From: Escherichia coli
GTDB taxonomy: Bacteria > Pseudomonadota > Gammaproteobacteria > Enterobacterales > Enterobacteriaceae
Direction: 5' to 3' (one strand)
Length of the DNA: 64,000 nucleotides
Assembly (NCBI RefSeq): GCF_036507355.1
Contig: NZ_AP027877.1
Shown: positions 5,563 through 5,639 of the stretch, piece by piece
Layout of the letters: each line of letters opens with the position of its first letter
Numbering within the stretch: the stretch's first letter is position 1
Translations under genes and position numbers: made by a program
Notes under the pieces: model-generated
What the model saw: the letters and a program-made list of their open reading frames with translations, nothing else
Database searches by the model: none
What the model was told of the DNA's origin: nothing

Positions 5563-5639
5563 TGGTTGCGGGGGCCGGATTTGAACCGACGACCTTCGGG
5601 TTATGAGCCCGACGAGCTACCAAGCTGCTCCACCCCGCG
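5563..5639 (-). tRNA. metW: Initiator tRNA-fMet (anticodon CAU), middle copy; carries a D-loop C17-to-U variant
   Basis: Identical to the flanking copies except plus-strand A at 5623 (G in the other two copies). Confidence 0.85.

Follow-up and report, generated by a model that had tools for sequence, protein, structure and literature searches.

The middle of three tandem initiator tRNA genes in an E. coli metZWV operon carries a genuine C-to-T change at tRNA position 17, which we read as a tolerated, recurrent polymorphism of putative Dcm origin; we put the probability of this reading at roughly three in four. Coordinates below refer to the window, the whole 64-kb stretch of DNA that was analysed.

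The metZWV operon and its variant middle gene

Judged by synteny and sequence identity, the window is E. coli chromosome and the interval 5452–5749 is the metZWV initiator-tRNA operon. The gene order, amiC followed by three tandem tRNA-Met genes and mltA, is that of annotated E. coli chromosomes, and the first 24 kb align with complete E. coli genomes at 98.4–99.0% identity, the highest value (99.0%) being reached by the freshwater strain TB06052. In E. coli, metZWV encodes the major initiator tRNA, tRNAfMet1 (PMC3017606). ARAGORN places three tRNA-Met(CAT) genes of 77 nt each on the minus strand, and every one of the three copies scores 61.4 bits against the Rfam tRNA model RF00005. The features of the locus, in the direction of transcription, are as follows.

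5750..5790, minus strand: putative operon leader and promoter region; its sense strand (...GAGCGGAGTATAGTGCGCATCCACGGA) abuts copy 1 on the upstream side
5768-5763, minus strand: TATAGT, a -10-like hexamer and putative promoter element
5673..5749, minus strand: initiator tRNA gene copy 1, promoter-proximal (metZ position); canonical tRNAfMet1 with C17 and G46 (ARAGORN, Rfam, alignment)
5730-5734: intact Dcm site CCAGG/CCTGG of copy 1
5640..5672, minus strand: 33-nt spacer between copies 1 and 2
5563..5639, minus strand: initiator tRNA gene copy 2, middle (metW position); U17 replaces C17 and the rest is identical (ARAGORN, Rfam, alignment, fold)
5620..5624: former Dcm site of copy 2, CCAAG on the plus strand and CTTGG on the sense strand
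5623, minus strand: the variant base, plus-strand A where the other copies have G, giving T/U17 on the sense, non-template strand
5529..5562, minus strand: 34-nt spacer between copies 2 and 3, with one base different and one A/T added relative to the first spacer
5452..5528, minus strand: initiator tRNA gene copy 3, distal (metV position); canonical (ARAGORN, Rfam, alignment)
5509-5513: intact Dcm site CCAGG/CCTGG of copy 3
5426..5445, minus strand: intrinsic-terminator-like hairpin GAACACCC-TAAC-GGGTGTTT followed by a T run, directly past copy 3

A consensus promoter scan upstream of copy 1 returned nothing above threshold. Upstream of copy 1, the DNA agrees with primer sequences published for the region preceding metZWV, and the putative promoter is placed solely by this agreement (PMC3017606).

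Alignment of the three copies leaves 76 of 77 columns invariant. The single variable column is plus-strand 5623, where the middle copy has A and the other two have G, so that the encoded tRNA has U instead of C at position 17 of the D-loop, which is also linear position 17. The preliminary description of this DNA had reported the substitution, its place in the D-loop and the identity of the remaining 76 nt in the same terms. In Sprinzl numbering the canonical D-loop reads A14 G15 C16 C17 U17a G18 G19 U20 A21; some authors name the base called 17 here C17a. All three copies have G46, which rules out a K-12 metY-type A46 isodecoder in the window.

Several other features of the window were recorded. 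At least 80% of its first 24 kb is covered in one piece in only 226 of 5,425 E. coli genomes. In the interval between fucI and fucA (17550-24400), where fucP is expected, lie genes for a sugar ABC transporter (ATPase, permease and binding protein), an FGGY-family kinase and a LacI-family regulator. Rfam matches at gathering threshold comprise GcvB (10235-10440, minus strand, 199 bits), CsrB (33536-33895, plus strand, 384 bits) and the ES036/CssrF small RNA downstream of mltA (7177-7219, plus strand, 46.5 bits); these are expected residents of the region.

Recurrence of U17 in E. coli and the authenticity of the call

The comparison with the initiator genes of other strains that the preliminary description had proposed as a check places U17, counted as the exact 77-nt sequence, in 124 of 5,425 complete E. 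coli genomes (about 2%) and in all four initiator genes. Exact queries with short locus-specific flanks placed 97 occurrences: the promoter-proximal copy 1 in 25 genomes, the middle copy 2 in 21, the distal copy 3 in 35 and the unlinked metY in 16. About 27 of the 124 carriers fall outside these locus counts, their flanks or spacers being polymorphic or their copy number altered. Strain DLI.6n (NZ_CP103974.1) carries U17 both in metY and in the distal cluster copy (590741-590841 and 1022890-1022985). It is the sole strain in which we noticed U17 in two initiator genes, which could reflect two hits or conversion between unlinked loci. Among the cases examined, none has U17 fixed in all initiator copies.

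A 1.66-kb stretch from mltA to the cluster was compared among eight middle-copy carriers, the window and non-carriers. With the window included, U17 in the middle copy occurs on at least four distinct haplotypes, and near-identical haplotypes are shared by MB10 (Cuba) and PSS-04 (Ecuador) and by 2013C-4974 (USA) and OkiPb01713 (Japan). Because haplotypes are shared and several backgrounds are involved, the U17 allele must be heritable and have arisen or been transferred several times; the 124 carrier genomes do not amount to 124 independent events, and several look clonal. None of the complete E. coli genomes reproduces the window exactly over 5380-5830. The closest haplotypes in that interval are those of O157:H7 TR01 and of KE55 with one mismatch each (99.8%), and for TR01, where this was checked, the mismatch is position 5623 itself.

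The allele is nothing outside known kinds and is already present in more than 100 public E. coli genomes, where it is annotated as tRNA-Met. The preliminary description had offered two alternatives, a polymorphism that is tolerated or the origin of a minor initiator isoacceptor; the two hold together, as one and the same thing, for an allele that recurs naturally. The correct term for the U17 tRNA is isodecoder rather than isoacceptor, because the anticodon is unchanged. U17 in E. coli is probably recurrent, able to appear in any of the four genes, persistently rare and near-neutral. Its rarity would reflect recurrent near-neutral mutation balanced by loss, the loss occurring through gene conversion or unequal exchange from canonical copies together with the CTWGG-to-CCWGG bias of Vsr.

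The cluster itself varies between strains. Matching places number one to eight per genome, an instance of cluster copy-number variation, and across the genomes four such places lie on plasmids. E. coli D2 (NZ_CP010137.1; 5451-5638 of the fetched locus) has two tandem initiator genes only between amiC and mltA. In AUSMDU00014361 (NZ_CP045827.1; 1779-3095 of the fetched locus), genes for phosphoglycerate dehydrogenase and a KpsF/GutQ protein replace amiC after the third initiator gene, an island inserted beside the distal initiator copy. The same assembly has a C-to-T D-loop variant of the tRNAPro gene proK, and thus two Dcm-site tRNA variants in one assembly.

A sequencing error at 5623, which the preliminary description named as the finding that would overturn its claim, was tested as an Oxford Nanopore (ONT) artefact at a Dcm motif. 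Such an error would be a miscall at the Dcm sequence CCWGG or mis-polishing in the tandem repeat. The concern is a real one, as roughly 70% of the consensus errors made with default ONT basecallers fall in Dcm motifs (PMC6591954), the variant sits exactly at the base that Dcm would methylate, and the lack of any identical genome over 5380-5830 points the same way. However, the outer copies, which share the sequence context of the middle copy, have the canonical base call, copy 3 agreeing with the middle copy over 28 nt upstream and 60 nt downstream. Over 24 kb, the 106 SNPs private to the window relative to four relatives comprise 82 synonymous, 17 nonsynonymous and 7 intergenic changes, with no flood of changes in Dcm motifs, and four of the five private coding changes that do fall in Dcm motifs are synonymous. 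Because these private SNPs are mostly synonymous, they indicate evolution under purifying selection rather than miscalls. In addition, U17 is inherited on shared haplotypes in strains from different laboratories, the carrier assemblies keep all other Dcm sites in their flanks, and U17 is the wild-type state in other genera. We conclude that an error at this base is very unlikely. More generally, CCWGG is where Nanopore assemblies err, and single-base tRNA "variants" at this motif need a read check before interpretation.

Two patterns among the window-private changes deserve mention in their own right. Six Dcm motifs over the 24 kb carry private changes, at 478, 3257, 4662, 8831, 11642 and 5623, and the number of Dcm sites falls from 72 to 67 in the window, with no private Dcm-motif change in any of the four relatives; these losses may be due to chance or to a lineage with weaker Dcm-site maintenance. 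The 3' end of recB (171-657, its last 500 nt) holds 6 of the 17 private nonsynonymous changes of the 24 kb, and the first third of recD holds three more, a cluster that could be a divergent recombined tract.

A Dcm site at the variable base

Copies 1 and 3 contain a Dcm site, CCTGG, at linear positions 16-20 (tRNA positions 16-19), and C17 is its inner C. In copy 2 the variable base is precisely this inner C, and the change follows the pattern of a Dcm product, CCWGG to CTWGG. Dcm methylates the inner C of CCWGG, deaminated 5-methylcytosine is T, and the T:G mismatch in CTWGG/CCWGG is a substrate of Vsr repair (PMC2715241; PMC3527292). The Dcm-deamination origin that we infer for C17T, from a putatively methylated site, would involve two steps. 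First, Dcm would methylate C17 and the 5-methylcytosine would deaminate to T. Second, the resulting T:G mismatch would escape Vsr very-short-patch repair and become fixed as CTTGG. C17 itself lies on the non-template strand, and the gene is very heavily transcribed. The mirror deamination on the opposite strand would yield G18A, a change that would hit the conserved G18 and is almost never seen; G18 is a universally conserved tRNA base.

As a control, we counted the genomes that contain each exact single-base initiator variant among the 5,425 E. coli genomes. C17T, at the putatively methylated inner C of the Dcm site, occurs in 124 genomes, compared with 6 for C16T, at the adjacent C that Dcm leaves unmethylated, and 1 for G18A, the product expected from deamination of the opposite-strand Dcm cytosine. 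C51T and U47C were found in none of the E. coli genomes, though each is wild type in some Pasteurellaceae. The single-copy gene proK (tRNAPro-CGG) has the same D-loop CCTGG, and its C-to-T variant is present in 11 genomes, a count of the same order as the per-locus initiator counts. Taken as sequence counts, these figures support a site-specific mutational input at C17.

A wider comparison shows no general Dcm hotspot. A comparison of the window with its closest relative over 24 kb gave transitions at 2 of 146 methylated positions versus a background of 1.5%, with no enrichment, and mutation-accumulation data, resolved at the triplet level, show no excess at CCA/CCT (PMC5887664). As there is no genome-wide excess, the hotspot step draws only on the tRNA-gene counts. 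The genes dcm and vsr are absent from the 64-kb window. Part of the excess of C17T relative to the controls could stem from a different selective tolerance rather than from mutation rate, and Nanopore miscalls at Dcm motifs in some public assemblies could also contribute to it. With these qualifications, the D-loop motif CCUGG, which the tRNAPro gene proK has in common with the tRNAfMet genes, constitutes a Dcm site whose inner C is the most often substituted of the tested bases (124 genomes versus 0–6 for the four controls, and 11 for proK), and it would illustrate cleanly, in natural isolates, how methylation can be linked to the recurrent mutation of essential RNA genes.

An alternative origin for the window's allele is that U17 was copied into the middle gene, either by conversion or unequal exchange between initiator copies or by homologous import from another E. 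coli strain. The origin would then be different and the functional consequence the same. The tandem copies undergo concerted evolution, and their number varies, as in the two-copy cluster of D2 and the one to eight matching places per genome. Strain 203740, with U17 in copy 1, differs from MB10 and PSS-04, with U17 in copy 2, at 4 positions over 1.66 kb, which could represent a shift between neighbouring copies, and DLI.6n has U17 in both metY and copy 3. Nevertheless, we consider this route unlikely for the window. Its flanking haplotype matches that of the non-carriers TR01 and KE55, with one mismatch over 451 nt, and does not indicate an imported tract. Conversion needs a first mutation in any case, and it leaves unexplained both why the recurrent base is C17 rather than C16, U47 or C51 and why a parallel change is found in proK, which is unlinked and single-copy. 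We therefore retain mutation at the putatively methylated C17 as the preferred origin.

Expected function of the U17 initiator and its known counterparts

The U17 substitution leaves the architecture of the tRNA intact. Copy 2 adopts a cloverleaf with a CAU anticodon (ARAGORN tRNA-Met(cat); Rfam RF00005, 61.4 bits), and the minimum free energy of the cloverleaf, -30.3 kcal/mol, is the same for the U17 and canonical copies. The D-stem GAGC/GCTC gives A11:T24, thereby keeping A11:U24, the purine11:pyrimidine24 pair that is a feature of the initiator tRNA D-stem. The C1xA72 mismatch is retained in the acceptor arm (CGCGGGG...CCCCGCA-A-CCA), position 1 being unpaired in the fold, as are G2:C71 and C3:G70. 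The anticodon stem likewise keeps its three G:C pairs, 29:41, 30:40 and 31:39 (TCGGG CTCATAA CCCGA). The C1xA72 mismatch and the three G:C anticodon-stem pairs are the definitions of an initiator (PMC5389676). The D-arm recognised by EF-P has a 9-nt D-loop on a stem of 4 bp in which 12:23 and 13:22 are G/C pairs (PMC4890201), its shape, a D-loop on a stable D-stem, being common to tRNAPro and tRNAfMet (PMC4890201; PMC11514478). What EF-P senses is the shape and size of this loop rather than its sequence. The variant has these elements, with a 9-nt loop from A14 to A21 that includes 17a and with G12:C23 and C13:G22 unchanged. A pseudogene or an inactivated copy 2 is ruled out by the equal score, the fold, the identity elements and the wild-type status of the sequence elsewhere.

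The same molecule is found in other species. A scan in which each bacterial species was represented by one genome, made for the D-arm and anticodon-arm with T17, gave at least 120 stretches. Among the matches listed, at least 45 genes are identical to the middle copy of the window at 77 of 77 positions, and these come from Vibrio, Photorhabdus, Xenorhabdus, Providencia, Shewanella, Parashewanella and Enterobacter sp. Ag1. Some tandem clusters are mixed at position 17, reading U-C-U in Providencia vermicola and Vibrio hannami, C-C-U and C-U-U in Photorhabdus, and U-C-C in Xenorhabdus. Because the identical 77 nt form a native initiator gene in many species, the U17 molecule appears to be a working initiator in close relatives. 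Heterogeneity at position 17 is frequent in the tandem initiator clusters of other Gammaproteobacteria, and Parashewanella curva (6690-6958 of the fetched locus) has A17 beside U17 in its cluster.

With the initiator determinants intact and the sequence identical to the wild-type initiator of other species, the U17 tRNA should be charged, formylated and used normally, as far as its sequence allows such a prediction. The level of tRNAfMet follows gene copy number (PMC3017606). The middle gene would be co-transcribed and processed with both neighbours to yield the U17 isodecoder, which would make up about one-third of the operon output and, if metY is present, about one-quarter of the total initiator tRNA. 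The impact on annotation is small, the operon consisting of three ordinary, functional-looking initiator tRNA genes.

Two contacts of the D-loop bear on how neutral the substitution is. DusB makes D17 in E. coli (PMC5814906) and, according to the literature, also in V. cholerae, so U17 is a potential DusB substrate and the variant may contain D17. C17a and U17b of tRNAfMet are given as EttA contacts in work cited by PMC4890201, and for this reason U17 may be less than strictly neutral. One could thus imagine U17 as a functionally distinct initiator under selection, for example with D17 or an altered EttA or EF-P contact tuning initiation under cold or energy stress. EF-P does read the tRNAfMet D-loop (PMC4890201; PMC11514478), and the U17 allele is far commoner than the other single-base variants tested. 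In contrast, the equivalent C-to-U change (C17aU) in tRNAPro1 leaves EF-P stimulation unaffected (PMC4890201), and none of the cases examined has U17 in every copy. Its scatter over four loci at low frequency is the expectation for recurrent near-neutral mutation, related genera contain U17-only, C17-only and mixed-cluster species side by side, and the parallel change in proK points to mutation input rather than an initiator-specific benefit. A selected role for U17 is accordingly the kind of explanation to which we would give hardly any weight. The same slight weight attaches to its more specific form, in which DusB-made D17 and a changed E-site contact with the ABC-F protein EttA would make U17 non-neutral and the Dcm site would act as a high-rate mutational switch. 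If that were true, about one-quarter of the initiator pool could behave differently when the first peptide bond is formed, or in the cold or when ATP is low, and the D-loop Dcm site would repeatedly generate the U17 variant in E. coli populations. The reading that we favour remains a tolerated polymorphism supplied by recurrent mutation.

Compared with the metZ, metW and metV genes of E. coli, the window shares locus, orientation, leader and terminator, and differs at position 17 of the middle gene, where U replaces C and the Dcm site of that copy is lost. The majority initiator sequence of E. coli, with C17 and G46, is that of copies 1 and 3; copy 2 departs from it at one of the 77 positions. 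In many of the species from Vibrio, Photorhabdus, Xenorhabdus, Providencia, Shewanella and Enterobacter (sp. Ag1) that share the middle-copy sequence, U17 is the sole or majority state, while in E. coli it is confined to a minority of about 2% of genomes.

An experimental counterpart is the tRNAPro1 C17aU mutant of Katoh et al. 2016 (PMC4890201), which has the same D-arm motif, with the 9-nt loop AGCCUGGUA and a G/C-rich stem. That mutant was an in vitro test of a tRNAPro, whereas the window variant concerns a tRNAfMet gene in the cell.

As for the proposed mutational step, the lacI amber hotspots are the classic hotspots of 5-methylcytosine deamination at Dcm sites. Like the change described here, the classical hotspots are recurrent, site-specific C-to-T changes of the inner C of CCWGG to CTWGG. 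The classical cases were selected reporter mutants, whereas those described here are standing variation in the tRNA genes of natural isolates.

The best precedent for the U17 copy is K-12 tRNAfMet2, encoded by metY and carrying A46 in place of m7G46, which is also a natural one-nucleotide initiator isodecoder confined to one of four genes. We know of no functional consequence of this A46 substitution. The two variants differ in position and locus, tRNAfMet2 in the variable loop at 46 and at metY, the U17 variant in the D-loop at 17 and in the middle gene of the window; A46 also looks lineage-inherited, whereas U17 is scattered over four genes. Like the role that we expect for the U17 initiator, tRNAfMet2 is functional while occurring in part of the species only (PMC3017606).
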